A stretch of DNA of 64,000 nt from an uncultured Gammaproteobacteria bacterium (GCA_963714975.1 CAVQQD010000003.1:782624-846623); one strand, 5' to 3'. Positions 4,185 to 58,477 are shown, counted from the first letter of the stretch. The notes: generated by a model not told the origin, from the letters alone. Made by a program: numbers and translations.

Positions 4185-4439
4185 CTGAAAGTTAAGAAAA
4201 TACGATACTTCAAGATGCTAAAAAGACAGTATCTTGAAGTGCAATGGGTATATACTGAGCTGCGCCACGAAAAAATCACACCCCATTTAAATGGATTTAA
4301 ACGACTGAAAGCTGTTAATGTGCTCATATAAACTCTCAGCCAATGCGCATTGATTTTTTTCATATTCTTCGTAGCGCTGATTAATCTCTGCATGTTGATC
4401 TAATAGTAATTCTGCCGCGCCGTTAATAACTGGAACAAG

Positions 4440-4640
4440 CGCAAGCATTATTAAATGATGCTTGCCCACTCAATGCTCCTGCCCGTGCTGACCTGCGGCG
4501 TGATTTTTTACAACAATTAGCAGAATATAAAAAAGCTGACCCTGATAAGCCGCCCACCTCAGCAAGCGTTACAAAAGCGCGCTATTCAAGTGAGTTCATC
4601 AGTAACAACAACTACTACGAGTCGATTAATTTCCCCACAA
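4440..4640. repeat. Inverted duplicate of the 3' end of the WD40 gene (gene-end remnant)
   Basis: Plus-strand 4440-4560 is near-identical to the reverse complement of ~4880-5000. It encodes ...NAPARADLRRDFLQQLAEYKKADPDKPP, versus the WD40 protein C-terminus ...NAPARADLRRDFLKQLAEYKKADPAKPP. There is no upstream ORF, so it reads as a truncated remnant. Confidence 0.6.
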
Positions 4641-20366: not shown

Positions 20367-23300
20367 ATGGCCCCTAATATTTTTACTTGTTTTATCATTG
20401 GAGAGGATAATCTCCATTTGGAATGTGCCAAAATTATCCAACAACAAGGACAGCAAATAATAGGCATTATCTCTGCGTATGAAGCCGCAGAACTATGGGC
20501 TTTGCAACAGGGAATTCCCCACTATGCCTCGCTAGCAGCCGCCCAAGAAGCACTCAACAAGACTCCTTTTGATTATTTATTTAGCATCGTCAATGCGCAG
20601 ATTTTGCCTGCCGCGATACTCAATTTGCCTCGGCAATTGGCGATTAATTTTCATGATGCGCCTTTACCACGGTATGCTGGAGTTCACGCCACTTCCTGGG
20701 CGATCTTAAATCAAGAAAAGACGCATGGCATTACTTGGCATGTGGCTACTGAAACCGTCGATGCCGGTGATATTTTACAGCAAGTGATGGTGCCAATTAC
20801 TGAAGATGAAACTGCGTTGAGTTTAAACCTCAAATGCTATGAAGCCGCGCTGCAAAGCTTTCCTGAGTTAGTGAAATCTTTGGCGAATCACAGTTATCAA
20901 CGCCAACCCCAAGATCTAAGACAACGTACCTATTTTGGTCTCCATCAAAAACCTGCTGGCGATGGCTGGATTGATTGGAATGCCAGTGCCGAAGATATTG
21001 AGCGATTATTTCGGGCTACTCAATTTGGCTCCTATCCTAATCGGTTTACTTGTCCTAAATTTAAGTTGTCATTCCAGCCGGACGAACCGTCATCCCAGCA
21101 AGGAAGCTGGGAAGATGAATTTATTATCACTCAATTAGAACTATTACCCGAGCCATCGACTGTAGCTCCTGGAACCATTGTTGCTACTACAGAGGAGTAT
21201 TGGCGCGTTGCGACCGCTACTTGCGACATCGCTATTCGGCAGATTTGTACTTTAGAAGGTGATGCAGTCATTCTGGAAGGAGAAGGGGTGCTAGATCAGG
21301 CTCACCCCTCATCCGGCCTTCGGCCACCTTCTCCCACAAGGGGAGAAGGAGTGAAGTTGAGGGCTTATGAGGCTCGAGCGGAAATCTCCCCTTTGTCCTT
21401 CGAGACGCTTCGCTCCTCAGGACGAATGGGGGGCAGGGGGGATTTAAACAGCGGAGGAGGCGATGAAGCCTACTGGGTTTCCCAATGGCAATCCATAGAG
21501 CCTGCCAAAATTCCCTTCCTGAATTTTAATCACCTCGAAAATAAATCCTCATTCCTTCTCCCCCTGTGGGAGAAGGTGGCCGAAGGCCGGATGAGGGGAG
21601 AACCCTCAGAATTCACCCCTCATCCGCCAGCCTACCCTGAGCCTGTCGAAGGGGCACCTTCTCCCACAAGGGGAGAAGAAGTAATGCCGGGGATGTATGA
21701 GAGGAGGTATTATCACCTACAACAATGGACCCTCCCCACCTCCTTACAAAAATTATTACACCAACATTACCCTACTCACGATTTCAACACCCTTCTTTTA
21801 GCCCTCTGGCTCGTCTATTTTTATCGTCTCGGTAATCAACCCAACGTAGGAGTGCTGCTGCAATTACCTGATCAAAATGCTTCACATCCTAGTGATCTGG
21901 ATCCTGGCATCCATGCCAGGACGAGTTTAGAACTACCGTATTTCACTGTCTTACAAGACGGATTACACTTCGGCCAAGTAGTGTCCCAATTACAAGATGA
22001 GTTACAGGCCATGCAACAAAAAGGCAGTTATTTACGCGATATATTTTATCGTTATCCAATTTTAACCGAAGTCAAACACGCCGTGTTTACTGCAGTGGTG
22101 ATTGGAGAAATCAATCAGCTACAAAAATCTCGTGCTGCTTTGGTGTTGGGGATATCTGCCAAAGATTATAGTTTATCTTGGCACGTCGATCAAAATTGCT
22201 TAACACAAGAACCCTACTTAAAAACCATCCTAGATCAAATGCCCGGCCATTTAGAAACCTTGCTAACCGCCATTACCACGCAACCAGAAACTCCCATTGC
22301 CGATTTAGTGCTACTTACACCCCAAGAACAGCAGCAAATCTTAATTGATTGGAATCAAACTGAAACAGACTATCCACGCGATAAAACTATTCCGCAATTA
22401 TTTGAAGAACAGGTTCAAAAACATCCCAATAAAATCGCCGTTTGTTTTGAAAATCAATCGCTCACCTATCGTGAGCTTAATCAACAAGCCAATCAACTTG
22501 CGCATTACTTAAGTCAACAAGGGGTGGTAGCTGAAACTTTAGTCGCAATTTGCATGGAACGCAGCATCGAAATGATTATTGGGATTTTGGGGATTTTAAA
22601 GGCGGGGGGTGCTTATGTGCCGATTGATCCTGAGTATCCAAGAGCGAGAATAAAGTTCATTTTCGAGGATTGTCGGGCTATGTTTGTGCTTACTCAATCT
22701 CGTCTTGCTAAGAAAATACATGCTATTACAGATGGCGCTGTTATTACGGTTGATAAAATTAAAAATATCAAAATTCATAACAAAGAATCTATTAGCTTAA
22801 ATTTTGACTCTTCTCAATTAGCTTATGTCATTTACACCTCAGGTACTACGGGAAAACCCAAAGGGGTTCTTATTAAACATCAGGCGGTGGTGAATACGGT
22901 CTTGGCAAAGTTACGAAAATTTGCCATTAATCACTCTGATAGAATCTTAAATTTTTCCACCCTTAGTTTTGATGCTTCTGTGTGGGAGATATTTCCCTGT
23001 CTATTTGCAGGAGCAACCTTATATCTGGCCAGGAAAGAAAATTTGTTACCAGGCAGTAAACTTACGCATTTTCTAGAAAAAAATAAAATTACTATCGCTA
23101 CTTTAGTGCCTTCTATACTAGCGATAACTCCACCACCTTCTACCTCCCATTTGCGGATAATTATTTCAGCGGGTGAATCATGCTCGAAGGCGGTAGTAAA
23201 GCAATGGGAAAACGTCGCTATTTTTGTTAATGCCTATGGGCCCACTGAATTTACAATTTGTGCTGCTATGGCAATCGTAGGTAAAGATGCAAATAAAATA

Positions 23301-26300
23301 ACTATTGGTAGACCGATTGCAAATACTAAAATTTTTATTTTAGACGATAAAATGCAGCTTTTACCCGTAGGCATCACCGGAGAGTTGTACGTCACAGGAC
23401 ACGGTTTGGCAAAAGGATATTTAAATCGAGATGCACTGACTAAAAGTAAGTTTATACCTTGGGCTTTGGAGCATGGAACCAAAGAGGTATCTCAAATAGT
23501 GTATAAAACGGGTGACTTGGCTCGTTGGTTGCCTGATGGTAACCTAGAATATATGGGCCGAGTGGATGAACAAATTAAAATTTTAGGCTGTCGGGCAGAG
23601 TTAGGTGAACTGGAAGAAATAGCAGTAACGTATCCTAATATTTTACAAGCTGCGGCTTGTCTAGATACAACAGCCGAAAAAAACCAAATTAACCTCTTTT
23701 TTGTCAATAAAAGTGACCGCAATGCAATTGATATTGCAAAGTTTAATCGCTTTCTAAAAAAACAGGTCCCTCGCTACACTGTTCCCTCTAAAATAATTGA
23801 AGTAGCTCGATTTCCAAGAACCGTTAATGGGAAAATTGATAAAAATTTATTGCTCAAAAAAATGTTTTTCATTAAGCAACCAGTTATAGAACCTCCGTCG
23901 ATCAAAGAAACATTACTCCTGGAAATTTTTCAAAAGATACTGAGAATTGATTCACTCCATTTAGAGGATGACTTCTTTCTCCTGGGGGGTGACTCCATTT
24001 TAGCAATGCATTTGGTTTCCAAAATCAATGCATTAGGCTTCCATTGTTCCGTGCGAGATGTATTTGAAGCATCCACCATAAAAAAATTGGTCATAAGGTT
24101 ACATAAAAAAAATCCTATAGAACCGATTGCGCTATTATCCAAAGATTTTTCCTTAACTCCAATTCAGCGTTGGTTTTTTGCGCAATCTTTCAGGCATCCG
24201 AAGCAGTTTGTTCAAATTTGCTGGCTAGAATTTCAAAAACCCATTAATTCAGAATTACTCGTTTGCTGCTTGCGGGAAATTATTGAATGGCATGAAATTT
24301 TTCGTCTTCGCTTTAAAAAGAAAGAAGGAATTTGGCAACAATATTATGCTGATAAGGTTCATGAATCATGCACCGATTTTCCAGTTATCGATAACTCTTC
24401 GCTGGTAATTCAGGATTTTGCGAATGAGTGGGTGATGAATGTGGCCCAGGATTTTAATTTTGAGACAGGCTATCTACTCAAGGTGGCCTTAGTACGCCAG
24501 CAAGGGAAAATTACCCATTTACTCTTAGCAGCACATCATTTGATTATGGATGGTGTATCTTGGCAAATTTTCTTTGATGATTTGCAGAGTTTATATGCAG
24601 GATCGGAAAAAGAGGGTAATAATTGGCAAAAATTTGCCAATAGTACTTCCTATCAACAGTGGGTTTACGCGCTAGAAAACTATATAGTTTCTTCGCAATT
24701 TAAAGCAGAGCAAAGCCATTGGCAAGGTGTTGATCCATTTACGTACATTCCTATTGATCACCACCAAGGGACTAATACGGAAAAATCTGCAGAATATGTC
24801 ACCGTAACATTAACCGAGGAAGAAACTCAGCGTTTATTGCGCACACTCGCTAAAACGCATCACTTGAATACCGATGAAATTCTAATTGCCTTGTTGGCAA
24901 AGTCCCTCATGCGCTGGTGCCAAACAGATTGCATCACGCTGGATATTGAACGCCACGGTCGGGAAGAATTAACAACGGAAATTAATTTAACAGGCACTTT
25001 AGGTTGGTTTACTAGTCTATTTCCTCTGCGGTTAAGCTGTAATAAAAATTTATCGCTACTCGAAATCATCCAATCGGTTCAGCAGCAATTACAAACGGTA
25101 CCACGTCATGGCATTAGTTATGGGTTACAGCATTATTTTTCTGGAGAATGGAAGCCAAAATCCAGTCTGCATGAGGGTGAAAATTTTACATCCCTGCACG
25201 CTGGATCCCGGCATCCTGCCGGGACGACGGGCCGCATCGCCTTTAATTACTGGGGTCAATTGGATCAAGCTTTTGCACAAAATTTCTTCACTTTGGGTGA
25301 GTTAAAATTGTTATCGCATCCCGAAAATATTCGTCCCTATTTGATCACTATTGATGCCGTAATCAAAAATAAGCAACTGCAACTAAGTTGGGCTTATAGT
25401 CGCAACTTCCATCGCCATGAAACCATCCAAGATCTCGCGCAGAATTTTGTGACTGATCTTCGAAATTTATTAACAAACACTCAGTTACAAAAACCAAAAA
25501 TTAGCTATGCTTTGACCGCGGTTCAACAAGGGTTACTCTTTGAACAATGTCGCTTTCCGCAAGCGCATTATTATCAAGCACAAGCGTGTTGGGAGCTGAA
25601 ATTATCTGGTCATTTTGATGCCAAATTATTACAAGCCGCATGTCGCTTTTTAGTGCAGCGTCATGATGTGTTGCGAACTCGTTTTGTGGTGTCAGGGTCG
25701 CAAGAGCCCACGCAATTCGTTGAAGAATCTATGGAAGTGCCTTGTGACATAATAGATCTACAGCAAGCGAAAGACCCTGAAGTGCAACTCACAAAGTTTC
25801 GTCTTGCCGACCAAGCTGCTTTGATTCATTGGCAAGCAACATCCCTTTTACGTGTTCAAATAGTGCTGCTGCCTGAAAATCGCTGTTACTTAATTTTGCA
25901 TTTTAATCACATGATTTTAGATGGCTGGAGTTTTTCGATTTTAGTCAAAGAATTTCACCAGTATTGTCAGGCGCAACAACAAGGATTAGCGCTGAATTTG
26001 CCCCCTACTTATCCTTTTGCTGATTATGTCCACTGGTTGCAGCACCAGAGTTGGAGTGCAAGTCAGGCGTTTTGGAAAAATTATTTGGCTAAATTTAATG
26101 AACCTGTCAATTTAAAGGTCTTGGGATTATTCGATGCGACGGCTGAAAAAACCGAGCTCTCGCGATGCGAGTTTGTGTCAACTCCCTTGTCTTCTGAATT
26201 AGGTCAAAAATTACAGCATTTTTGCCAAATGCAGCACATCAGCTTAAACACATTCTTTCAAGCGTTATGGGGTATTTTATTGCACCGCTATACCCAGACC

Positions 26301-29300
26301 CCTGATATTGTGACGGGCATGACCGTGTCGGGACGCAATATTGACTTGCCTCAGATCCAAGAGCGGGTAGGATTATTTATTAATAGTATTCCCTTGCGAC
26401 AACAGTTTGTCCCTGAGATAACAGTGCTGGCTCACTTGCAACAATTGCAAAAGACTATTACGTGCTTAATTCCGCACAGCACCTTCCCTCTTGCCGCCAT
26501 TCAAGCCTGCTCTGCACTATCTACTGCAGAACATCCCTTGTTTGATAGTCTAGTCGTCTTTGAAAATTATCCCCAAGCAACCCAAGAGGAAATCGAATTT
26601 TGGGATCCAACTCATTATGGTTTGACTTTGCTTATTACTCAAGGTTCCTGTTTGAAGCTGAAATTAGGCTATGATTGCCAACGTATTAATATAGAACGAG
26701 TCCAAAATTTACTGGAACATTTACAACATCTTTTGACCGTAGTCTTAGACAATCCACAGCAACAGATTGCCCGCTTACCTTTATTGACTACAGCAGAATA
26801 TCAAAAGCTATTTGCTCCAACCCAAACTGTAGTAGTGCTGGAAAATGTGGTAAGTTGTTTTCAAAAACAAGTAGTTAGTTCTCCTCACCATCCCGCGCTA
26901 GTTTGGGAGGGTCAGGTCTTGAGTTATCAAGACTTAGAAAATCAATCCAATCAATTGGCGCATTATTTAGCGACATTTCCGCATCATGGTGAAATGCCGA
27001 TTGGAGTATGCTTACCCCGTTGTCCCGAATTAGTCATCAGTTTGCTCGCGATCTGGAAGATGGGGGGAGCTTATTTGCCTTTAAATCCTGACTATCCGAC
27101 GGCTCGATTGCAAAGTATAGTAGATAGCCATCAAGTGAATCTTTTAATTTCCAAGAACATGATTCAAAAACTTACCGTGAACCATCCGATATTGTTGGAT
27201 CAAGTTCAAGCGAGTATCTGTCAACAACCTACTTATTATCCTCAGCATAGGATTCAACTGACGGATTTGGCGGCCATTTTAACCACTTCAGGCACCACCG
27301 GTAATCCTAAAAGCATTGCCCAAGAACATAAAACACTGGCGAATCTTGTGCATTGGCAACATCATGCATTTGCTTCCTCAGCAAAAAGACGAGTGACGCA
27401 ATTAGCAGCAATGAATTTTGATGTTTCATTACAAGAAATAACTTATGCGCTTGCTCAGGGCGATACGCTATATATTGTGCCAGAAACTATCAAACAATCC
27501 CTGGCGGAATTACTACGCTTTTTAGCGATCAATAAAATTCAACAAGCATTTTTAACCACTGCTTTATTGGAAGTTTTTTGTGAAGCGGCCTTATTTTTTA
27601 AACCCAACTTAAACTATCTGACTGAGATTTATGTAGCAGGAGAGGCATTAAAAATCTCTGGCCCGATCAAACAATTTTTTTCGCAAAATCCTCATATAGA
27701 CTTGGTGAATGAATATGGACCGACGGAAACTCATGTAGTAGCGACTCATCGATTATCAGTAGATACCATCGATAATTGGCCTTATTTACCGCCCATTGGA
27801 CGCGCAATTGACAACATCCGCTTATATGTCTTAGATGCCCAGTTACAAGCCTTACCGATCGGTATTCCGGGTGAGCTGTATATAGGTGGCGTCAATTTAG
27901 CGCGTGGTTATCTCCACAATGACAAGCTCACCCAAGAAAAATTTGTCCCCAATCCCTTTGATCCTATTGGTACCTCACGCTTATATCGTACGGGTGATCA
28001 GGTTCAGTGGAATGCGGCAGGGGAATTACTTTATTTAGGCCGTTACGATGATCAAGTAAAAATTCGCGGTTTTCGTATTGATCCGCAAGAAATTGAAGAA
28101 GCCTTACTAACACATAGCACCATTCAACAATGTTTGGTGACTGTGATTTCAGAGGAAAAATCAGCGCAATTAGTGTGCTATTTTGTCCCTTCTGATAAAA
28201 ATGAAGATGCAGAAAGTTTACGCCACCCATTGCGAAAAATATTACCTGACCATTTAATTCCGACCTATTTTATCAGGTTACAGTCCTTTCCCTTAACACG
28301 CGTTGGCAAAATTGATCGGCAGGCACTACCCCGACCTGAGCAAAGGAATGCCATAAGTAATACCACTTTTCGTCACGCTTATGAGCAACAACTCGCCGAG
28401 TTGTGGTCCGAAATTCTCCTTTGCACTTGCATAGATCGAGAGGTATCTTTTTGGGCTTTGGGTGGTGACTCGATTAAAGCTTTGCGCTTATTATTCTTAA
28501 TTGAACATCATTTGCAAGTGACGTTATCGCTGCAGGATTTTTTTACAGCACCTTCCATTGCCCAGATGAGTGATCGCATTCGTTTGACACAAGCGGATAA
28601 GGTATTGCAAAATCAGTGGCAAACCCTAGATTTTAAAGGATGCCACTTACCTTCTCCCTTAGTGCCATTACAAACCACAGGAGAAAAAACACCGCTGTTT
28701 ATTATCCACCCGATTGGTGGCACAGTTTTTGCCTTTTTAGATTTGGTCCGTTATCTGGGAAATGAGCGACCTATTTATGGAATTCAAGACCCCAACGTAG
28801 CTGACAATAACCATATTTCTTTTTTTAAAAATTTAGAAGAATTAGCAGCCTATTATGTTTATGCATTGCGCAGTGTCCAGCCTCAGGGTCCTTATTTTTT
28901 GTCGGGTTGGTCCTTTGGTGCTACTGTTGCCTTTGAAATGGCGCGACAAATTCTCGCTAGTCATGAAAAAGTAGAATTTTTAGGCTTACTCGATGGTTGG
29001 GCGGCGTATCCCAGCGAATTGCAAAATGAAAAAACATTCAAACAACTCATTCAAAAACAATGTGATGACTTATACCAACAATTTCATCTCAATCAACTAA
29101 AAAATCCTGATTTCTGGGTGGAACTACAATGGCAACGCAGTGATCTGCTTTGGCGATATAAGTTAAGACCTGTAAACACAGCTATAACTTTATTTAAAGC
29201 GAAAGAAGGGATACCAGGATTTCATGAGTCGTATGAGAAAGATTATGGCTGGCATCAATTTACCACCAAGCCAGTAGAAGTGTATGAGGTTCCGGGGGAT

Positions 29301-29387
29301 CATGCTTCGATGTTTCAGGAACCTTATGTGCAATCTTTAGCTGGTGCAGTATCTGCTGCATTAAATGAGGGACATATGGTTCATTAG
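20367..29387 (+). CDS. Nonribosomal peptide synthetase, two modules with an N-terminal formyltransferase (F) domain: F - partial C - A1 - T1 - C - C(NHxxxDG) - A2 - T2 - TE
   Basis: The N-terminus is Fmt-like (..HDAPLPRYAGVHATSWAILNQE..). A-domain cores appear twice (YTSGTTGKPKGV / TSGTTGNPKSI, NAYGPTE / NEYGPTE, GELYVTGHGLAKGYLNR / GELYIGGVNLARGYLHND, YKTGDLARW / YRTGDQVQW). T domains are LGGDSILA and LGGDSIKA. C domains carry HHLIMDGVSW and NHMILDGWSF. The TE has GWSFGATVAFE. Confidence 0.85.
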   Translation: MAPNIFTCFIIGEDNLHLECAKIIQQQGQQIIGIISAYEAAELWALQQGIPHYASLAAAQEALNKTPFDYLFSIVNAQILPAAILNLPRQLAINFHDAPLPRYAGVHATSWAILNQEKTHGITWHVATETVDAGDILQQVMVPITEDETALSLNLKCYEAALQSFPELVKSLANHSYQRQPQDLRQRTYFGLHQKPAGDGWIDWNASAEDIERLFRATQFGSYPNRFTCPKFKLSFQPDEPSSQQGSWEDEFIITQLELLPEPSTVAPGTIVATTEEYWRVATATCDIAIRQICTLEGDAVILEGEGVLDQAHPSSGLRPPSPTRGEGVKLRAYEARAEISPLSFETLRSSGRMGGRGDLNSGGGDEAYWVSQWQSIEPAKIPFLNFNHLENKSSFLLPLWEKVAEGRMRGEPSEFTPHPPAYPEPVEGAPSPTRGEEVMPGMYERRYYHLQQWTLPTSLQKLLHQHYPTHDFNTLLLALWLVYFYRLGNQPNVGVLLQLPDQNASHPSDLDPGIHARTSLELPYFTVLQDGLHFGQVVSQLQDELQAMQQKGSYLRDIFYRYPILTEVKHAVFTAVVIGEINQLQKSRAALVLGISAKDYSLSWHVDQNCLTQEPYLKTILDQMPGHLETLLTAITTQPETPIADLVLLTPQEQQQILIDWNQTETDYPRDKTIPQLFEEQVQKHPNKIAVCFENQSLTYRELNQQANQLAHYLSQQGVVAETLVAICMERSIEMIIGILGILKAGGAYVPIDPEYPRARIKFIFEDCRAMFVLTQSRLAKKIHAITDGAVITVDKIKNIKIHNKESISLNFDSSQLAYVIYTSGTTGKPKGVLIKHQAVVNTVLAKLRKFAINHSDRILNFSTLSFDASVWEIFPCLFAGATLYLARKENLLPGSKLTHFLEKNKITIATLVPSILAITPPPSTSHLRIIISAGESCSKAVVKQWENVAIFVNAYGPTEFTICAAMAIVGKDANKITIGRPIANTKIFILDDKMQLLPVGITGELYVTGHGLAKGYLNRDALTKSKFIPWALEHGTKEVSQIVYKTGDLARWLPDGNLEYMGRVDEQIKILGCRAELGELEEIAVTYPNILQAAACLDTTAEKNQINLFFVNKSDRNAIDIAKFNRFLKKQVPRYTVPSKIIEVARFPRTVNGKIDKNLLLKKMFFIKQPVIEPPSIKETLLLEIFQKILRIDSLHLEDDFFLLGGDSILAMHLVSKINALGFHCSVRDVFEASTIKKLVIRLHKKNPIEPIALLSKDFSLTPIQRWFFAQSFRHPKQFVQICWLEFQKPINSELLVCCLREIIEWHEIFRLRFKKKEGIWQQYYADKVHESCTDFPVIDNSSLVIQDFANEWVMNVAQDFNFETGYLLKVALVRQQGKITHLLLAAHHLIMDGVSWQIFFDDLQSLYAGSEKEGNNWQKFANSTSYQQWVYALENYIVSSQFKAEQSHWQGVDPFTYIPIDHHQGTNTEKSAEYVTVTLTEEETQRLLRTLAKTHHLNTDEILIALLAKSLMRWCQTDCITLDIERHGREELTTEINLTGTLGWFTSLFPLRLSCNKNLSLLEIIQSVQQQLQTVPRHGISYGLQHYFSGEWKPKSSLHEGENFTSLHAGSRHPAGTTGRIAFNYWGQLDQAFAQNFFTLGELKLLSHPENIRPYLITIDAVIKNKQLQLSWAYSRNFHRHETIQDLAQNFVTDLRNLLTNTQLQKPKISYALTAVQQGLLFEQCRFPQAHYYQAQACWELKLSGHFDAKLLQAACRFLVQRHDVLRTRFVVSGSQEPTQFVEESMEVPCDIIDLQQAKDPEVQLTKFRLADQAALIHWQATSLLRVQIVLLPENRCYLILHFNHMILDGWSFSILVKEFHQYCQAQQQGLALNLPPTYPFADYVHWLQHQSWSASQAFWKNYLAKFNEPVNLKVLGLFDATAEKTELSRCEFVSTPLSSELGQKLQHFCQMQHISLNTFFQALWGILLHRYTQTPDIVTGMTVSGRNIDLPQIQERVGLFINSIPLRQQFVPEITVLAHLQQLQKTITCLIPHSTFPLAAIQACSALSTAEHPLFDSLVVFENYPQATQEEIEFWDPTHYGLTLLITQGSCLKLKLGYDCQRINIERVQNLLEHLQHLLTVVLDNPQQQIARLPLLTTAEYQKLFAPTQTVVVLENVVSCFQKQVVSSPHHPALVWEGQVLSYQDLENQSNQLAHYLATFPHHGEMPIGVCLPRCPELVISLLAIWKMGGAYLPLNPDYPTARLQSIVDSHQVNLLISKNMIQKLTVNHPILLDQVQASICQQPTYYPQHRIQLTDLAAILTTSGTTGNPKSIAQEHKTLANLVHWQHHAFASSAKRRVTQLAAMNFDVSLQEITYALAQGDTLYIVPETIKQSLAELLRFLAINKIQQAFLTTALLEVFCEAALFFKPNLNYLTEIYVAGEALKISGPIKQFFSQNPHIDLVNEYGPTETHVVATHRLSVDTIDNWPYLPPIGRAIDNIRLYVLDAQLQALPIGIPGELYIGGVNLARGYLHNDKLTQEKFVPNPFDPIGTSRLYRTGDQVQWNAAGELLYLGRYDDQVKIRGFRIDPQEIEEALLTHSTIQQCLVTVISEEKSAQLVCYFVPSDKNEDAESLRHPLRKILPDHLIPTYFIRLQSFPLTRVGKIDRQALPRPEQRNAISNTTFRHAYEQQLAELWSEILLCTCIDREVSFWALGGDSIKALRLLFLIEHHLQVTLSLQDFFTAPSIAQMSDRIRLTQADKVLQNQWQTLDFKGCHLPSPLVPLQTTGEKTPLFIIHPIGGTVFAFLDLVRYLGNERPIYGIQDPNVADNNHISFFKNLEELAAYYVYALRSVQPQGPYFLSGWSFGATVAFEMARQILASHEKVEFLGLLDGWAAYPSELQNEKTFKQLIQKQCDDLYQQFHLNQLKNPDFWVELQWQRSDLLWRYKLRPVNTAITLFKAKEGIPGFHESYEKDYGWHQFTTKPVEVYEVPGDHASMFQEPYVQSLAGAVSAALNEGHMVH
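21296..21700. repeat. Cluster of palindromic repeat elements inserted in-frame within the NRPS coding sequence (F-domain/C-domain linker)
   Basis: Three copies of a ~48-bp unit CACCCCTCATCCGGCCTTCGGCCACCTTCTCCCACAAGGGGAGAAGG lie at 21303-21350 and 21614-21686 (direct) and 21551-21598 (inverted). The family-1 core GACGCTTCGCTCCTCAGGACGAATGGGG is at 21404-21431. GGGGGGCAGGGGGGATTT is at 21427-21444. The ORF stays open and translates this stretch as low-complexity peptide (..PSPTRGEGV.. appears twice). Confidence 0.6.
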
Positions 29388-31530: not shown

Positions 31531-31543
31531 CCGCTTTCTCTCT

Positions 31544-31583
31544 AAATCCCCCCTTACCCCCCTTTTTCAAAGGGGGGGATTTA
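31544..31583. repeat. Family-2 palindromic element (AAATCCCCCC...GGGGGGGATTT) 14 nt downstream of the HK stop
   Basis: AAATCCCCCCTTACCCCCCTTTTTCAAAGGGGGGGATTT. The same architecture recurs at 57189-57268 and 60648-60795. Confidence 0.55.
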
Positions 31584-35186: not shown

Positions 35187-35447
35187 TTAAGGATAATAGG
35201 GATGATACGGATGTACGTACGGGTGGTAGTATGGATGATATGGGTAATAAGGATGATAGGGATGCACGTACGGATGGTAGTATGGATGATACGGATAATA
35301 GGGGTGATAGGGATGCACGTACGGATGATAGTACGGGTAATAAGAAACGGAAACACCAAGCTGGGCATAGCTCCCTAATGACGTAACCGCCAATAGACCA
35401 GCAGCCAAGGCCAAGGCAATCCGCTTTTTTAAAGAACCAAGTTTCAT
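35187..35447 (-). CDS. Secreted His/Tyr/Pro-rich tandem-repeat peptide
   Basis: Signal peptide MKLGSLKKRIALALAAGLLAVTSLGSYAQ, then YPYYHPYVHPYHPY repeated three times (42-nt DNA repeats), ending ..HPYYP. Followed by a terminator. Confidence 0.55.
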   Translation of the reverse strand: MKLGSLKKRIALALAAGLLAVTSLGSYAQLGVSVSYYPYYHPYVHPYHPYYPYHPYYHPYVHPYHPYYPYHPYYHPYVHPYHPYYP

Positions 35448-41712: not shown

Positions 41713-42579
41713 TCAGTAGCCCCTACTACCCCTGCTCATGGTTAATGGCAGATTTTGCTGAGCTTCGTCTTGGAAATCGCAAAGGAATTTTTTATGTTGC
41801 CAAAAACCACCAGCCGCAAAGACAAGACCAAGCGTAATTAATCCACATGCAATAGCAACACCAAGTTGAAGATGAGGCAACACAGTTGAAGTCATACTCC
41901 ATTCACGTTGATCACACAGGGTAGGTACAAGCACCGTGACCCCTCCAACAATTAACTGTATAGATACGACCATAGACAGAAAACATAAGACTTGCCGACG
42001 GTCATAATCTCTTTCGCTTGCAAAGCTATAGATGAGCCCATTATATTTGGGCAATGCTTTTTTAAGGGGTTTAATATCCGTATTAATAAATGTTAAAAGG
42101 TAAAAAAACTTATCATCATCTTTAGGTTGAACAAACTTAAGATCAGTTACTTGTGCACTTTCGAAATCTGAATCAATAAAAATACTTGGATTATTAAAGG
42201 TGCAATTTTTTAAATTAGAGTACTTAAATTTTGCACAAAATAGAGATACAGTTTGGGGTAGCCTTATTGTGGCATTTTCTAAGTTTGCCTGCGAAAAATT
42301 TGCAACTATTTTACTGTCCCCATAACGAAAGGAAAAGCTTATATCGCAGCCACTTAAATCAGAGCCAGAAAAATCAAAACGAGGAAGAAGATTTTCGTGT
42401 TCGTTTTCAAAGGTTTTATATGGATATTTACGGATACCTCGGCCCGTTTTCTTATAGAAGCGGAGTATGTAGTTGCTACTAGGCCAAGATTGATATTCAA
42501 AGCAAATATCGTATTGTTTCAGATTTAAATTCGCAAAATTAAAAGTAAATTCATTTCTAGCCTTCTTATAATCTTTCAT
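41713..42579 (-). CDS. Pentapeptide-repeat protein with C-terminal transmembrane helices
   Basis: Pentapeptide repeats A(N/D)LxxxDLSGCDISFSF, FSQANLENATIR and FKYSNLKNCTFNN are present. The C-terminal hydrophobic segments are VLCFLSMVVSIQLIVGGVTVLV and VAIACGLITLGLVFAAGGFW. Confidence 0.6.
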   Translation of the reverse strand: MKDYKKARNEFTFNFANLNLKQYDICFEYQSWPSSNYILRFYKKTGRGIRKYPYKTFENEHENLLPRFDFSGSDLSGCDISFSFRYGDSKIVANFSQANLENATIRLPQTVSLFCAKFKYSNLKNCTFNNPSIFIDSDFESAQVTDLKFVQPKDDDKFFYLLTFINTDIKPLKKALPKYNGLIYSFASERDYDRRQVLCFLSMVVSIQLIVGGVTVLVPTLCDQREWSMTSTVLPHLQLGVAIACGLITLGLVFAAGGFWQHKKFLCDFQDEAQQNLPLTMSRGSRGY

Positions 42580-52563: not shown

Positions 52564-52598
52564 AATAATTACCTCATTATAAGTATAGTAGAATTCTT

Positions 52599-52748
52599 GT
52601 GAGCTCAAACTGAACTGAAGTCCCGCCGCCCGCCTACGGGGTCCTGCCGCGCGGACAACCCGCCGTGCTCGGCTACGAGCACGGCGGGTTGTCCGCGCGG
52701 CAGGACCCCGTAGGCGGGCGGCGGGACTTCAGTTCAGTTTGAGCTCAC
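52599..52748. repeat. Perfect 150-bp palindrome (73-bp arms, 4-nt GCTA centre), GC-rich
   Basis: Left arm 52599-52671 GTGAGCTCAAACTGAACTGAAGTCCCGCCGCCCGCCTACGGGGTCCTGCCGCGCGGACAACCCGCCGTGCTCG. Right arm 52676-52748 is its exact reverse complement. The arms are ~70% GC in a ~35-40% GC neighbourhood. Confidence 0.9.
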
Positions 52749-52970
52749 AAAATTTTTAATAAGAGATGAATATCCAGTCCGAGCCTGGTTGGCGGATAGA
52801 AATTGAGCCGTTAAGTGCTTCTTGAGTAGGGGAATAGAATGAACAAATTTGGTTGCCCACCTTGTCATAGGAGCTAGGCTGTAGACCTGGAGCGAGATCG
52901 ACGAAGTTTTTTTCCCATTCCCTGGGCTAATAAAGTAGCTGTTAACATATTGAGACTGACGCCTTCCTCT

Positions 52971-54184: not shown

Positions 54185-54238
54185 ATCATCTTATAGCTAA
54201 TTTGGGTAATGCTAACAATTTTTGTGCTAAAATACCAC

Positions 54239-57200
54239 ATGAATTTACATCCCTTAGTCCAAGATTGGTTTTCTAGTCACTTGGGTTCGCCTACTGAGCC
54301 GCAACAACAAGGCTGGCCCGCCATAGCGGCTGGAAAATCGGTATTAATTTCTGCACCCACGGGTTCTGGAAAAACCTTAGCGGCCTTCTTAATTTGCATC
54401 GATCGTTTAGTGCGCAAAGCGCTGGTCGATGAATTGACTGACTCTACCGAAGTGCTCTATGTTTCGCCACTAAAAGCGCTCAGTAATGATATCGAGAAAA
54501 ATCTTGCCCGACCTTTAGCTGAAATTGCTGTTTTAGCCGAACAACGTGGCTTAAAAATGGCAGAAATCCGTGTTGCGCTACGCACTGGCGATACCTCCAC
54601 GCGTGATCGTCTAGCGATGTTACGAAAAGCACCGCATATTTTGGTGACAACTCCCGAATCATTGTATCTGTTACTTACTGCCGAAAAAAGTCGCGCTTTG
54701 CTAACTCGAATTAAGACGGTGATTGTCGACGAAATCCATGCGTTAGTAAATGATAAACGTGGCACGCATTTAGCTTTGTCGCTAGAGCGTTTAGCAGCTA
54801 TCACCGCAGAACCCCCAGTGCGGATTGGTTTATCCGCGACGCAAAAACCTCTCGATTTAGTGGCGCGTTTTTTAGTGGGAACTTACCGCCCACAGCCGGT
54901 CATTGTTGATATTGGTTATGCTCGTCAATTAGATTTGGCAATCGAAGTTCCGCGTTCTCCGTTAGGTCCCATTACTTCGAATGCGATTTGGGATGAACTA
55001 TACGATCGCATTGCGGAATTGGCCAGACAAAATCGTTCGACCCTTATTTTTGTGAATACACGCCGCTTAGCCGAACGCATTGCGCATTGCTTGGCCGAGC
55101 GTTTAGGTGCAAATCAAGTGGCAGCTCATCACGGCAGTTTATCCCGCAAAATCCGTTTGACCGTGGAAAATAAATTAAAAAACGGCGAATTAACCGCCCT
55201 GGTTGCCACCGCCTCGTTGGAATTAGGTATTGATATTGGCACTGTAGATCTGGTATGCCAGATTGGGTCGCCACGGGCCATTGCTGTGGCTTTGCAGCGT
55301 ATTGGTCGTGCTGGACACTGGCATGGGGCAGTGGCTAAGGGCCGTATTTTTGCGACCACGCGTAATGAATTATTGGAATGCGCCGCCTTAGTTTATGCGA
55401 TTCGCGCTGGTGATTTAGATCAATTGCTGCTCCCGCAACAACCCACGGATATTTTAGCCCAGCAAATTGTCGCCACCTGTGCTACCGGTGAATGGACGGT
55501 GGAGGCATTATACACGTTAATAACCGGGGCTTATCCCTATGCCAATTTATCGCGAGAGCTGTTTTTTGCTGTTTTAACCATGCTGGCTGATGGCATTGCT
55601 GGATCGCGGGGACGCTATGGGGCTTATTTGCATTGGGATCGCGTCAACCAGATCATCCGTGCGCGTCGAGGGAGCCGCATGGTGGCTATTACTAGTGGTG
55701 GTGCTATTCCAGATAATGGCTTATTTCAGGTGATTGCCGAGCCTGAACATCTTTTGGTCGGGAGTTTAGACGAGGATTTTGCCATTGAAAGTAATCGTGG
55801 TGATATTTTTTTGCTTGGCAGTACTTCGTGGTGCGTTCAACAAATCCAAAGTACTAGTGGTAAAGTCCTGGTCGAGGATGCGCGTGGAATGCCTCCCAAT
55901 GTGCCGTTTTGGCGGGGAGAAGCGCCTGCGCGCACTAAAGAATTATCACTGCATGTCAGCCAGCTCCGACAAACTTTAAGTGACTTATTGGGGAATAATT
56001 CAGAATCGCCAGCAATAGCAGCCACAATTAATTGGTTGCATACCCATTGCCATTTGGATGCTCAGGCTGCAGAGCAACTGATTGAGTACCTATTGCAAGG
56101 CCGTGCTATTTTGGGAGCAGTGCCAACGCAGTCAATGATTATTGCCGAACGTTTTTTTGATGAAAGTGGTGGGATGCAGTTAATTATTCATGCGCCGTTT
56201 GGTGCGCGAATCAATAAAGCCTGGGGACTTGCACTCAGAAAACGGTTTTGTCGTTCATTTAATTTTGAATTACAGGCAGCGGCCACCGATGACGGGATTA
56301 ATATTTCATTAGCAGAGCAGCATAGTTTTCCCTTGGCAGATGTATTTGATTTTTTGCATCCGAACACGGTGCCAGAAGTGTTAACCCAAGCGGTTTTACC
56401 ACTGCCGTTATTTGCTACGCGGTGGCGTTGGGATGCGAGTCGCTCTTTAGCCTTGCCACGTTTTTTTAATGGCAAAAAAGTGCCGCCGCAAATTTTGCGT
56501 ATGCGCGCCGAAGATTTATTAGCAGCGGTTTTTCCTGAGGCAGTGGCCTGTCAAGATAATTTAGGTGGACGGGATATTGCCTTACCGGATCATCCTTTGG
56601 TCAATGAAGCGATGAAAGATGTATTGACCGAAGCTTTGGATTTAGCGGGTTTGATTCAGGTGTTGGCAAACATTAAAAGTGGGGAAATTCACACTAAGGC
56701 AGTGGATACGGCTTTTCCTTCGCCTTTTGCGCATGAAATTCTCAATGCTAATCCCTATGCATTTTTAGATGATGCGCCTTTGGAAGAACGCCGAGCGCGC
56801 GCCGTAGAAATGCGTCGTGTGTTACCAGCAGCAGCGCTGCAGGAAGTAGGGCGCTTAGATCCTGTGGCAATAATGGAAGTGCAACAGCAGGTCTGGCCGG
56901 ATATTCGCAATGCAGATGAGTTGCATGATAGTTTATTAACGTTAATCGCATGGCCTCATTCACCCGTCGTCCTGGCAGAATGTCAGGATCCAGACAGCAG
57001 GGATGCAAAAATTTCACTTCCTTGTGGACTGGGTTTTGGCTTTCCTGCCGGAACGACAAGCTCTTTGGAGCTGCATTTTGTAGCATTAAAAAAAGCAGGT
57101 CGGGTAGCAACAGCTTTGCATCAAGGCAAGAGTTTTTACTTTGCGGTGGAAAAAGCACAAATTTTTGCTGAGATTTATCCGCAAGCGGAAATCCCCCCTA

Positions 57201-58375
57201 CCCCCCTTTGTCAAAGGGGGGATCATGAAATTCCCCCCTTTGGCAAAGGGGGGTTAGGGGGGATTTTAGACCTGTTGCGAGGATGGTTATTGCATCTAGG
57301 CCCTGTGACGGCTAGTGAATTAAGTTCAGCATTGGCGTTGGAATTAAGCGCAGTAGAGCAAGGATTGTTACAACTTGAAGCCAGTGGCTTTGTGTTACGT
57401 GGGCATTTTAAGCACCCAGCAGAAGAAGATGAAATAGAGTGGTGTGAACGCCGTTTATTAGCACGGATTCATCGCCAAACCATCAATCGCTTACGTCGAG
57501 CTATCGAACCCGTTACGCCAGAGAAATTTATGAGTTGGTTAGCCAATTGGCAACACCTAGCTGCCGGGACGCAATTAGCAGGATTGCAGGGATTGCGTGA
57601 GATAATTAGGCAATGTCAGGGGCTTGAGCTGCCAGCAAAGCTATGGGAGCGCGATATTTTTGCAAAACGAGTGCGTGACTACGATGCGGGGATGCTGGAT
57701 CGATTATGTTTGAGCGGAGAAGTTGCCTGGGGCCGCCTTTCTTGGCATTCTGGATTATTATCGGGAGAGGGGAGAATAATACCCAATCGTGCAATTCCAA
57801 TTACGTTTTTTATAAGAGAAGATTCTAGCTGGATACCGACGCGCGCGCATTTAGAAGAACGAAATTTAGAAGTTCTAAGCCATGTGGCAGGAAAAATTTA
57901 TCATTATCTCCAACAGCAAGGCGCGTGTTTTTTTGCTGATTTAGTACGCGGAGTGGGTTGTCTGCCAGCAGAAGCAGAACGAAGTTTATGGGAACTGATT
58001 GCAGCAGGATTAGTGACCGCTGATAGTTTTGATAATATGCGTGCCTTAATTGATCCGCGGCGTCGTTTGGGGCGTGGTAGACATCGTAGTGTTTTGCCGC
58101 GTTATAGTGGAGGACGTTGGGCCTTATTACCCATGTTTGCAGCGGACGATACTGCGCAACAATTAGAAGCGGTGGGTTGGTTATTGCTGCGGCGTTATGG
58201 GGTTATATTTCGTGATCTGTTAGCACAGGAATCTTTAATTCCACGTTGGCGTGAACTGCTTCCTATCTTTCGCAGCCTCGAAGATCGGGGAGAAATTCGC
58301 GGGGGACGTTTCGTGAGCGGCGTGGTCGGCGAACAGTTCGCCTTACCGCAAGCAGTTGAATCCTTACGTAGTTGA
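54239..58375 (+). CDS. lhr: Lhr-family large ATP-dependent helicase (DEAH box)
   Basis: Motif I APTGSGKTLAAF, DEAH as VIVDEIHAL, and motif VI QRIGRAGH, with the Lhr C-terminal extension. The first ATG is at 54239 (MNLHPLVQDWF); the ORF track starts at 54209. Confidence 0.85.
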   Translation: MNLHPLVQDWFSSHLGSPTEPQQQGWPAIAAGKSVLISAPTGSGKTLAAFLICIDRLVRKALVDELTDSTEVLYVSPLKALSNDIEKNLARPLAEIAVLAEQRGLKMAEIRVALRTGDTSTRDRLAMLRKAPHILVTTPESLYLLLTAEKSRALLTRIKTVIVDEIHALVNDKRGTHLALSLERLAAITAEPPVRIGLSATQKPLDLVARFLVGTYRPQPVIVDIGYARQLDLAIEVPRSPLGPITSNAIWDELYDRIAELARQNRSTLIFVNTRRLAERIAHCLAERLGANQVAAHHGSLSRKIRLTVENKLKNGELTALVATASLELGIDIGTVDLVCQIGSPRAIAVALQRIGRAGHWHGAVAKGRIFATTRNELLECAALVYAIRAGDLDQLLLPQQPTDILAQQIVATCATGEWTVEALYTLITGAYPYANLSRELFFAVLTMLADGIAGSRGRYGAYLHWDRVNQIIRARRGSRMVAITSGGAIPDNGLFQVIAEPEHLLVGSLDEDFAIESNRGDIFLLGSTSWCVQQIQSTSGKVLVEDARGMPPNVPFWRGEAPARTKELSLHVSQLRQTLSDLLGNNSESPAIAATINWLHTHCHLDAQAAEQLIEYLLQGRAILGAVPTQSMIIAERFFDESGGMQLIIHAPFGARINKAWGLALRKRFCRSFNFELQAAATDDGINISLAEQHSFPLADVFDFLHPNTVPEVLTQAVLPLPLFATRWRWDASRSLALPRFFNGKKVPPQILRMRAEDLLAAVFPEAVACQDNLGGRDIALPDHPLVNEAMKDVLTEALDLAGLIQVLANIKSGEIHTKAVDTAFPSPFAHEILNANPYAFLDDAPLEERRARAVEMRRVLPAAALQEVGRLDPVAIMEVQQQVWPDIRNADELHDSLLTLIAWPHSPVVLAECQDPDSRDAKISLPCGLGFGFPAGTTSSLELHFVALKKAGRVATALHQGKSFYFAVEKAQIFAEIYPQAEIPPTPLCQRGDHEIPPFGKGGLGGILDLLRGWLLHLGPVTASELSSALALELSAVEQGLLQLEASGFVLRGHFKHPAEEDEIEWCERRLLARIHRQTINRLRRAIEPVTPEKFMSWLANWQHLAAGTQLAGLQGLREIIRQCQGLELPAKLWERDIFAKRVRDYDAGMLDRLCLSGEVAWGRLSWHSGLLSGEGRIIPNRAIPITFFIREDSSWIPTRAHLEERNLEVLSHVAGKIYHYLQQQGACFFADLVRGVGCLPAEAERSLWELIAAGLVTADSFDNMRALIDPRRRLGRGRHRSVLPRYSGGRWALLPMFAADDTAQQLEAVGWLLLRRYGVIFRDLLAQESLIPRWRELLPIFRSLEDRGEIRGGRFVSGVVGEQFALPQAVESLRS
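57189..57268. repeat. Family-2 palindromic element inserted in-frame in lhr
   Basis: AAATCCCCCCTACCCCCCTTTGTCAAAGGGGGGATCATGAAATTCCCCCCTTTGGCAAAGGGGGGTTAGGGGGGATTTT. It is translated within the ORF as EIPPTPLCQRGDHEIPPFGKGGLGGILDL. Confidence 0.6.
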
Positions 58376-58477
58376 GGCCCATGTCTGAAACTCACCAGAT
58401 GTGTCATCCCGCGAAGCGTTGGCGACAGGCAAGGCATAGTATAGAATGGCAATTATTTTAAAAGAAGAAAGAAACTT

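Follow-up and report, generated by a model that had tools for sequence, protein, structure and literature searches.

In this work we focused on a segment of about 80 nucleotides (nt) inside the gene of an Lhr helicase, on a 64,000-nt stretch of DNA from an uncultured Gammaproteobacteria bacterium (GCA_963714975.1, CAVQQD010000003.1:782624-846623). This whole stretch is called the window below, and positions given without a locus name or accession are counted from its first letter. We propose, with a probability of roughly 60%, that the segment is a doublet belonging to a cross-phylum family of short, non-autonomous repeats that form structures, with a DUF559 nuclease as its cognate protein, with spread through the repair of DNA breaks and with a fold capped by a triplex.

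The segment (57189-57268, read directly from the window as AAATCCCCCCTACCCCCCTTTGTCAAAGGGGGGATCATGAAATTCCCCCCTTTGGCAAAGGGGGGTTAGGGGGGATTTTA) lies in an intact open reading frame (ORF; 54209..58375, plus strand) of 1388 amino acids (aa) and is translated in frame as EIPPTPLCQRGDHEIPPFGKGGLGGILDL. These and all other sequence statements of the original prediction, an earlier annotation of this DNA, were correct. The ORF encodes an Lhr-type DEAD/DEAH helicase, identical to the protein record P0001, whose homologues carry the Pfam domains DEAD, Helicase_C, DEAD_assoc and Lhr WH. The segment had been described as a palindromic element. It is indeed an inverted double copy, but not a simple palindrome, because the repeat unit itself is asymmetric: its roughly 35 nt consist of a tag, AAATCCCCCC, a spacer of 2-4 nt and a hairpin, CCCCCCTTT-N3-AAAGGGGGG. 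In the Lhr gene two such units are inverted with their tags outward, and about 10 nt separate the hairpins. The E-values below were obtained with nhmmer by searching the window with a profile, GAAAATCCCCCCTAACCCCCCTTTTTCAAAGGGGGGAA, built solely from units of other genomes.

57188..57222, plus strand: unit A, with tag GAAATCCCCCC, spacer TA and hairpin CCCCCCTTTGTCAAAGGGGGG, translated as EIPPTPLCQRGD; E = 1.1e-11.
57223..57231, plus strand: inter-hairpin spacer of about 10 nt, which forms the loop of the large hairpin; ATCATGAAATT covers the spacer and the unit edges.
57232..57267, minus strand: unit B, inverted relative to unit A and reading AAAATCCCCCCTAACCCCCCTTTGCCAAAGGGGGGA on the minus strand, with the plus-strand translation IPPFGKGGLGGIL; E = 1.8e-12.

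As a single strand the doublet is predicted to fold into a hairpin of about 35 bp, with -39.7 kcal/mol as DNA (z = -8.6) and -71.7 kcal/mol as RNA (z = -8.2). Only one of its three forward frames is free of stop codons.

This segment is not ancestral Lhr sequence, since its peptide is absent from 65 of 65 aligned orthologues and it sits in a variable linker, directly before the conserved C-terminal region of the protein. The insert claimed by the original prediction was thus upheld by the orthologues (0/65 with the peptide), rather than being shared by all of them as a native stretch would be. Between the conserved IYPxA and MLRGW blocks the orthologues have about 22 poorly conserved residues, or almost none in five of them, while the Lhr of the window has 28 residues at the same linker, all of them coded by the repeat. 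Since these 28 residues stand for about 22 unrelated ones, the event appears to have been a replacement that lengthened the protein by about 6 aa, and the foreign, repeat-coded nature of the predicted '27-aa insert' stands while its description as a simple insertion of 27 aa does not. The alignment with the Mycobacterium smegmatis Lhr structure (PDB 7LHL) breaks before the segment and restarts exactly at ILDLLRGW. In an AlphaFold2 model of residues 831-1388 (mean pLDDT 83), the repeat-coded stretch (fragment residues 164-185) is mostly coil, with block pLDDT values of 87, 64 and 80, and its final few residues begin the next helix. As far as this model shows, the linker agrees with the surface loop that had been expected.

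A search of 5.8 billion proteins found as closest Lhr homologues proteins 64-69% identical, labelled as belonging to Gammaproteobacteria metagenome-assembled genomes (MAGs) and to Legionella species. Since the nearest homologues are only 64-69% identical, the lineage of the window has no close sequenced relative in this protein collection. The G/C-run look of the motif had suggested cyanobacterial SDR or HIP repeats, an idea that was dropped; the Lhr homologues are gammaproteobacterial, Legionella-like proteins among them at 63-69% identity. The same Lhr gene also holds a copy of a second repeat family, found at 56963-57042 and, in an NRPS-type (nonribosomal peptide synthetase) ORF, at 25152-25231; the two copies are 80 nt long, 80% complementary and both within ORFs. 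The Lhr copy of this second family (…DAKISLPCGLGFGFPAGTTSS…) is absent from the orthologues and corresponds to the stretch of lowest confidence in the AlphaFold2 model (fragment residues 92-110, pLDDT <50).

Units were then searched in one genome per species, using only the perfect hairpin core CCCCCCTTTNNCAAAGGGGGG as a query, without the tag, which gave at least 120 loci. According to the record titles of the matches listed, the hosts include Desulfobacterota, Nitrospirota, alpha-, beta- and gammaproteobacteria, Myxococcota, Acidobacteriota, Planctomycetota, Chloroflexota, Bacteroidota/Ignavibacteria, Deinococcota, Elusimicrobia, Omnitrophota, Bacillota, Methylomirabilota and others. Among the isolates are Chromatium okenii, Lysobacter spp., Luteimonas sp. 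R10 and Thiothrix caldifontis, and the GC content of the listed loci ranges from 0.30 to 0.71. Although absent from the query, the tag was found on most of at least 216 units in these loci (5' of the hairpin in 84, 3' in 90, on both sides in 15, on neither in 27). The listed loci hold 61 inverted doublets. In 26 of them the tags face outward, with 7-60 nt between the hairpins as in Lhr, and in 35 they face inward, around spacers of 1-45 nt that are unrelated in sequence between copies. Tags were likewise present in 96 further unit-bearing stretches of viral contigs from IMG/VR. The unit, tag included, is thus present almost unchanged in genomes labelled as a dozen or more phyla, in most cases as part of an inverted doublet. 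It has no family in Rfam, where only sub-threshold hairpin look-alikes such as miRNA precursors were found, and neither the motif, nor its peptides, nor the link to DUF559 described below was found in the literature searched, which misses most subscription journals.

The family is tightly linked to one clade of DUF559 (Vsr-like, PD-(D/E)XK) nucleases. In an all-against-all comparison of the ORFs of the 120 listed loci, the only gene family touching units in several loci encodes a protein of about 115 aa with the domain PF04480/DUF559 (PF04480, E = 1e-31 to 1e-35), present in three of these unit-selected loci. As an independent test, metagenome contigs were searched with an alignment of these three proteins and without any DNA pattern. 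This search yielded 80 loci with 49-87% protein identity, and units adjoin the DUF559 gene in 77 of them. The 80 loci were grouped by the similarity of their flanks into 42 contexts of distinct synteny (GC content 0.36-0.69). In 39 of these a unit adjoins the gene, in 18 the gene is flanked on either side by units whose tags point towards it, and in 7 it stands between two complete doublets. A tag occurs within 45 nt downstream of the gene in 30 of 42 contexts and upstream in 31 of 39, compared with 13 of 1909 background windows.

The fit between gene and units is precise. When the raw flanks of one representative per context were aligned, again without a DNA pattern, the upstream consensus was TCCCCCCTTTGAAAAAGGGGGATTAAGGGGGATTTT, followed by about 8 nt and the ATG, and the downstream consensus, AAATCCCCCCTAACCCCCCTTTTTCAAAGGGGGGAA, was the unit of the window; unit B of the Lhr doublet is near-identical to this flank consensus. 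The start codon lies within about 10 nt after the upstream tag GGGGGATTT, and the 3' end of the gene enters the downstream tag AAATCCCCCC. Two contigs of one metagenome share only a DUF559 cassette of about 450 nt, at 96.7% identity, and their similarity stops right after the downstream tag. More than 6600 DUF559 homologues were found, many of which end in ...KIPPAPL or ...KSPLPPFxKGG, C-termini that represent read-through into tag and hairpin. The proteins keep the nuclease motif D..E.DG..H, with D34, E45, D47 and H51 invariant (alignment A2), and the profile of the clade matches PDB 3HRL (E = 1e-29) and, more weakly, 3R3P (E = 1.3e-3).

A DUF559 cassette with several units also lies between the substrate-binding-protein and permease genes of a branched-chain amino-acid-type ABC transporter operon (L297-L304), the same locus in many samples. 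The presence of an identical DUF559 protein (P0175) on many contigs was considered as a sign of several genomic sites and rejected, as it represents one locus in many samples.

The tag obeys a mirror rule that is kept by co-variation. In some units a T occurs within the C-runs. In every unit whose purine arm offsets the left-arm change with an A, the tag has a T at the mirror position of the left arm, in parallel register with the purine arm. All 18 distinct units with an internal, Watson-Crick-compensated arm change follow this parallel register and none the antiparallel one; among all units with an asymmetric purine run the numbers are 71/86 and 0/86. None of 20000 permutations reached the observed parallel co-variation. 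The variants fall into three classes, given here as tag/left arm/purine arm: CTCCCC/CCCCTC/GAGGGG, CCTCCC/CCCTCC/GGAGGG and CCCTCC/CCTCCC/GGGAGG, the last of which includes the unit at 60651-60686 of the window. Beyond the canonical form, high copy numbers were reached only by variants consistent in all three elements (112, 17 and 15 copies, versus at most 6 for any inconsistent one). Pair counting on 38 distinct tag/arm combinations gave, in the parallel register, changes on both sides at three of four internal positions; the observed number of doubly changed cells was reached in 0 of 500 shuffles and that of changed positions in 20 of 500. Slid registers gave at most 1, and the antiparallel register did not rise above the shuffles. 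An alternative hairpin in which the tag forms Watson-Crick pairs with the purine arm was therefore rejected (0/86, and not above shuffles).

Ordinary copying makes no mirror repeats, and proteins usually do not read them. Co-variation of the tag in the mirror register is what an intramolecular triplex requires, following the triplex rules and H-DNA geometry reportedly set out by Frank-Kamenetskii and Mirkin in 1995. The order of the elements is 5'-third strand, short loop, Watson-Crick pyrimidine arm, loop, purine arm-3', and this layout would fit two known triplex motifs. The stems and the tag are conserved while the loops vary.

The units also turn over. Doublets are present in some and absent from other syntenic loci of related organisms with 80-92% identity, in agreement with the suggestion of an insertionally active family. 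In one case (L128 and L132, compared with L127) the doublet stands in place of about 21 unrelated bases, the same replacement pattern as in Lhr. The family had further been suggested to tolerate or prefer coding insertions. Coding sites are tolerated, as seen in Lhr and in two further genes: the glutaminyl-tRNA synthetase (GlnRS) of C. okenii (L111 1380-1560) contains three in-frame units, EEIPPAPPFTKGGEEKPPVDKSPQPPLLKGEEEEKPPFEKGGLGGFDQ, so that about 55 residues stand where the Pseudomonas aeruginosa enzyme (5BNZ) has about 5, and in the Lhr of Luteimonas sp. R10 (L075 3700-3990) another linker, with about 100 additional residues, holds an in-frame tags-outward pair. Coding sites are not preferred, since units are depleted inside ORFs: an open frame of at least 300 nt on both sides was found for 10% of the units and for 45% of random positions in the same loci. 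No target-site duplication was found at the borders of the window copies or at the polymorphic sites, and no transposase family recurs beside the units in the 216 loci listed. The label 'MITE/RPE-like' therefore holds for the behaviour, which resembles that of the Rickettsia palindromic elements (RPEs), and fails for miniature inverted-repeat transposable elements (MITEs).

A similar arrangement was found around more distant DUF559 genes, with 38-52% identity and carried by plasmids and chromids. In all five taxa inspected the gene borders have their own C-run/G-run hairpin, which carries a tag on the same strand 2-3 nt away. The borders included the following (L305, L306, L307 and L309).

Azospirillum: border reading ...GGGGGAGGG TTA GGGTGGGGG.
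Deinococcus proteolyticus: exact inverted repeat of 20 nt that spans the gene.
Synechocystis sp. B12 and Neisseria gonorrhoeae: lineage-specific C-run/G-run hairpin with an adjacent tag.

These borders suggest a general partnership between DUF559 genes and repeats. In Escherichia coli, the 3' end of the DUF559 gene ycjD overlaps a dispersed repeat. Of 5426 complete genomes 4907 contain it, with a median of 14 places each. The fabI-ycjD spacer of strain K-12 (L310, NC_000913.3 1351030-1351840) holds CCCTCTGGGGAGAGGG TTA GGGTGAGGGG, that is, a pyrimidine/purine hairpin, TTA and a purine tag. A partial duplicate of the 3' end of ycjD lies between two copies of this repeat (L310, L308). BoxC was reportedly first described in this spacer, next to envM (= fabI). 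It has been reported as a repeat of 56 bp with 22-32 copies and unknown function (PMC2267715). The repeat next to ycjD is probably BoxC, as judged from the fit of copy number and length to that report. It follows the same hairpin-plus-tag plan as the units described here and differs from them in primary sequence. In the literature searched, nothing was found that connects BoxC with ycjD.

Within the window the profile found six full-length units (E = 1.8e-12 to 1.5e-5). The motif CAAAGGGGGG, with at most one mismatch, has 12 matches versus 4.2 +/- 1.8 in dinucleotide-preserving shuffles, and GGGGGGATTT has 14 versus 5.7 +/- 2.5; none of 100 shuffles reached either number. The dispersed family recognised in the original prediction is therefore real, and the copies it placed at 31544-31583, at 60648-60795 and, as GGGGGGATTT, in the NRPS block were all found there. 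Besides the Lhr doublet, the copies are as follows.

31543..31582 (profile match 31543-31578), plus strand: intergenic unit, 14 nt past the stop codon of a hybrid kinase gene; E = 3e-12.
60651..60686, minus strand: variant unit in which three parts have changed together in the mirror register (tag CCCTCC, left arm CCTCCC, purine arm GGGAGG); E = 1.8e-8.
60700..60744, minus strand: degenerate unit with tags on both sides, AATCCCCCATACAGCCCTTTGCAATAGGGAGGTTAGGGGGATTT; E = 1.5e-5 for 60714-60744.
60756..60791, plus strand: degenerate unit, which forms a tags-inward pair with the unit at 60700..60744, with 13 nt between them; E = 5e-9.
21381..21446, no strand assigned: remnant in a linker of an NRPS-type ORF, consisting of the tag AAATCTCCCC and TTTG, a 31-nt copy of another repeat and then TGGGGGGCAGGGGGGATTT; partial matches at 21381-21392 and 21429-21446.

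The hybrid kinase before the first of these units has PAS, HisKA, HATPase_c and Response_reg domains. The purine arm of this unit continues directly into GATTT, so that the outer AAATCCCCCC/GGGGGGATTT could also pair. A role as terminator of the kinase gene was considered and rejected, as the unit was not called terminator-like. The array at 60648-60795 has a Pkinase gene on one side and, on the other, the second member of a tandem quinone-oxidoreductase-like pair. The quinone-oxidoreductase-like gene (ADH_N/ADH_zinc_N) is tandemly duplicated (58419-58948 and 59617-60140, 95-97% DNA identity), and the three degenerate units lie just 3' of the second copy. The remnant at 21381..21446, with GGGGGGATTT at 21436-21445, is located inside a formyltransferase/NRPS-type ORF of 3006 aa (20367..29387). 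The repeat that interrupts it belongs to a different family of 25-31 nt, and the remnant reads as a unit split by, or nested with, this other family.

Several other repeats were observed in the window. The linker after the formyltransferase domain of the same ORF (21299-21680) is a nested mosaic of repeat families, read in frame as HPSSGLRPPSPTRGEGV, LLPLWEKVAEGRMRGE and PEPVEGAPSPTRGEE, with 56-nt inverted arms at 21299-21354 and 21549-21604 that are 93% complementary. The 25-mer at 21399-21423 matches the reverse complement of 737-761 exactly. It belongs to a 'family 1' repeat, GTCCTGAGGAGCGAAGCGTCTCGAA, with copies at 731-807, where it has its own palindrome, at 21399-21423 and at about 42554-42578; no further copy was found in about 2 Mb of loci from other organisms. 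A near-perfect palindrome at 52586-52761, with 86-nt arms that are 95% complementary and 4 nt apart, lies at the end of a small minus-strand ORF. A 51-nt repeat occurs in three tandem copies, 82-100% identical, at 35188-35340, and 139-nt inverted repeats, 86% complementary and 327 nt apart, lie at 4426-4564 and 4892-5030.

Under the explanation proposed here, the DUF559 nuclease would be the cognate protein of the family, as RAYT is for REP sequences and REPINs or as a free-standing homing endonuclease is for its flanks. It would nick or cut at the folded unit, and the units would spread through repair or recombination of the breaks and not through transposase chemistry. Such spread would explain why target-site duplications are missing and why insertions take the place of about 20 nt, or 20 codons, that were resident at the site; both features suit repair better than they suit transposition. 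The tag would fold back on the hairpin as a third strand, through C+.G-C and T.A-T triplets on the C-rich strand or through G.G-C triplets in the antiparallel purine motif on the G-rich strand, and this triplex-capped fold would be the feature that is recognised and conserved. In Lhr only a copy with an open frame, placed in a surface linker, could have survived.

Several points weigh against this explanation. The window contains no DUF559 gene, and many of the 80 DUF559 loci are orthologous, which is why they were counted by context. The association could mean that units insert beside the DUF559 gene or serve its expression, and a hydrolytic nuclease offers no obvious route to new sites. The triple co-variation comprises three variant classes, hence at least three events, which may be inherited subfamilies, and C+.G-C triplets depend on low pH or some other stabilising condition. 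Within one genome the copies vary in their spacers and loops, so that recent copying from one master looks unlikely; homogeneity of these parts within a genome was looked for as the sign of a recent burst and was not seen. The host range is indicative only, because the core query forced a perfect hairpin and many hosts are MAGs, whose labels can be wrong.

Four other explanations were weighed. The units could be structural or regulatory repeats that serve the host in the manner of REP/BIME or BoxC sequences, as mRNA stabilisers, terminators or binding sites of a nucleoid or topology protein, and be maintained by selection in every genome, the link to DUF559 being incidental or a matter of expression control. 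Most copies are indeed intergenic and at gene ends, the upstream tag occupies the position expected of a ribosome-binding site for the DUF559 gene, with the downstream hairpin after the stop codon, and the conservation of stems and tag with variable loops also fits such a role. We nevertheless consider it unlikely, since it leaves unexplained the near-identical sequence across phyla and across GC contents of 30-71%, as well as the copies inside essential ORFs, the rapid gain and loss and the copies on viral contigs; moreover, the units have no T-run and were not called terminators. It is a little harder still to accept the DUF559 gene as a passenger or preferred landing site, with units that move by other means or a gene that hitch-hikes between them. 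Units far outnumber DUF559 genes (three genes in the 120 listed unit-selected loci), tags-inward pairs surround not only the gene but also short unrelated spacers, and the window itself has units and no such gene, all of which would be expected of a passenger. A passenger would hardly show the precise fit seen in 39 of 42 contexts at 49-87% protein identity, with the start just past one tag and the stop inside the other, nor would each distant DUF559 subfamily have its own hairpin-plus-tag repeat, as co-evolving partners would.

A classical MITE, that is, an insertion sequence shortened by deletion and mobilised in trans by the transposase of its parent element, with tag and hairpin as its terminal inverted repeats, appears quite improbable. 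The palindromic structure, the short dispersed copies and their presence or absence between related genomes recall such elements, but the borders in the window and at polymorphic sites lack target-site duplications, no transposase family recurs near units in the 120 loci listed, the sole linked gene encodes a nuclease of about 115 aa, and the spacers between units are unrelated from copy to copy. Finally, the Lhr linker could be native to the lineage and resemble the intergenic motif only through its low-complexity composition, or could be an assembly artefact. The linker does vary in length and sequence among orthologues, yet the segment has two full-length profile matches at E ~1e-12, is near-identical to a cross-phylum consensus, tag included, and forms a palindrome with a perfect stem of about 35 bp that is common to no orthologue. 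Units are also found in complete isolate genomes (Luteimonas sp. R10, Lysobacter, Chromatium okenii), and we regard this last explanation as extremely improbable.

The proposed association of a short repeat with a nuclease can be compared with several known systems. REP sequences and REPINs consist of a tag and an imperfect hairpin, form inverted pairs, are dispersed mostly outside genes without target-site duplications and are accompanied by a repeat-flanked RAYT gene (PMC3116915, PMC3733652). The units described here likewise form inverted doublets able to fold into a long hairpin (61 listed; z = -8.6 in Lhr) and flank a small gene. They differ from REPs in that the GTAG/CGTC tag is absent from the consensus, the tag being AAATCCCCCC, and in their partner, a DUF559/Vsr-like PD-(D/E)XK hydrolase, with no IS200/IS605-type Y1 transposase near units. 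They are also conserved across phyla, whereas REPs co-diverge within a genus, and they occur in frame in ORFs and show mirror co-variation of tag and stem. RPEs, which are about 100-150 bp long and confined to Rickettsia and relatives, are said to have been described by Ogata and colleagues (in 2000 and 2002) as palindromic repeats that survive in frame in genes, in surface or linker regions, and add a peptide; we know of no partner protein for them. In-frame survival at tolerant sites, as in Lhr, GlnRS and the second Lhr, is a likeness in behaviour only. With about 35 nt per unit and about 80 nt per doublet, a cross-phylum distribution and a minority of coding copies, the present family is set apart from RPEs by size and host range.

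MITEs such as Correia/NEMIS, Nezha and Chunjie share with the units their small size, the lack of coding capacity, the palindromic structure, the dispersion and the presence/absence polymorphism. They differ in that the units are much shorter and have neither target-site duplications nor a parent insertion sequence, only the DUF559 cassette sharing their termini. The nuclease fold and catalytic residues of the DUF559 clade are those of EDxHD/Vsr-like homing endonucleases. One of these, I-Bth0305I, a proven nuclease of mobile DNA, acts as a dimer and cuts a pseudo-palindromic site (PMC3239194), and 3R3P is its catalytic domain. Unlike the DUF559 protein, which is a bare catalytic domain of about 115 aa, free-standing between units, I-Bth0305I has its own N-terminal NUMOD/HTH modules and resides in a group I intron. 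By this comparison, the tags-inward pairs with spacers of 1-45 nt could be empty homing sites. As in the mirror repeats of H-DNA, the tag and the adjacent arm mirror each other (GGGGGG-TTA-GGGGGG / CCCCCC-TAA-CCCCCC) across a linker of 2-5 nt; classical H-DNA tracts, in contrast, are long simple runs that form no dispersed family and have neither an added inverted repeat nor a linked nuclease gene. The SDRs of Nostocaceae (Elhai et al. 2008) are reportedly also very small mobile repeats (21-27 nt), some of them palindromic, with insertions within genes too; they are reported only in Nostocaceae (PMC5861425). By analogy, the logic of the present system would be closest to REP/REPIN-RAYT and its coding behaviour closest to RPEs, while membership in the known classes fails on the tag sequence, the partner protein and, for MITEs, the target duplications and the transposase.

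Short dispersed palindromes such as REP, BoxC and RPE are among the oldest unexplained features of bacterial genomes. To our knowledge only REPs have so far a known partner protein, and we know of no role assigned to DUF559, a very large family. More tentatively, and with doubt prevailing, the findings may point to an undescribed class of selfish DNA across much of the bacterial domain, composed of triplex-folding units of about 35 nt and a minimal Vsr-like DUF559 nuclease that recognises the fold, spreading through break repair into intergenic regions and now and then into protein linkers, and existing in lineage-specific versions that include BoxC/ycjD. If this is true, DUF559 would gain a function by serving a second kind of repeat as its partner protein. 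The conservation of the unit, nearly base for base over a GC range of 40 points, would imply a strict structural recognition code, possibly a DNA triplex, in a rare natural use. Through the units, essential proteins such as Lhr and GlnRS would repeatedly gain new peptide segments, and many of the 'PPFxKGGxGG'-type junk peptides in metagenome annotations would be explained. The probable E. coli counterpart, ycjD with its BoxC-like repeat, would make the idea testable in K-12.

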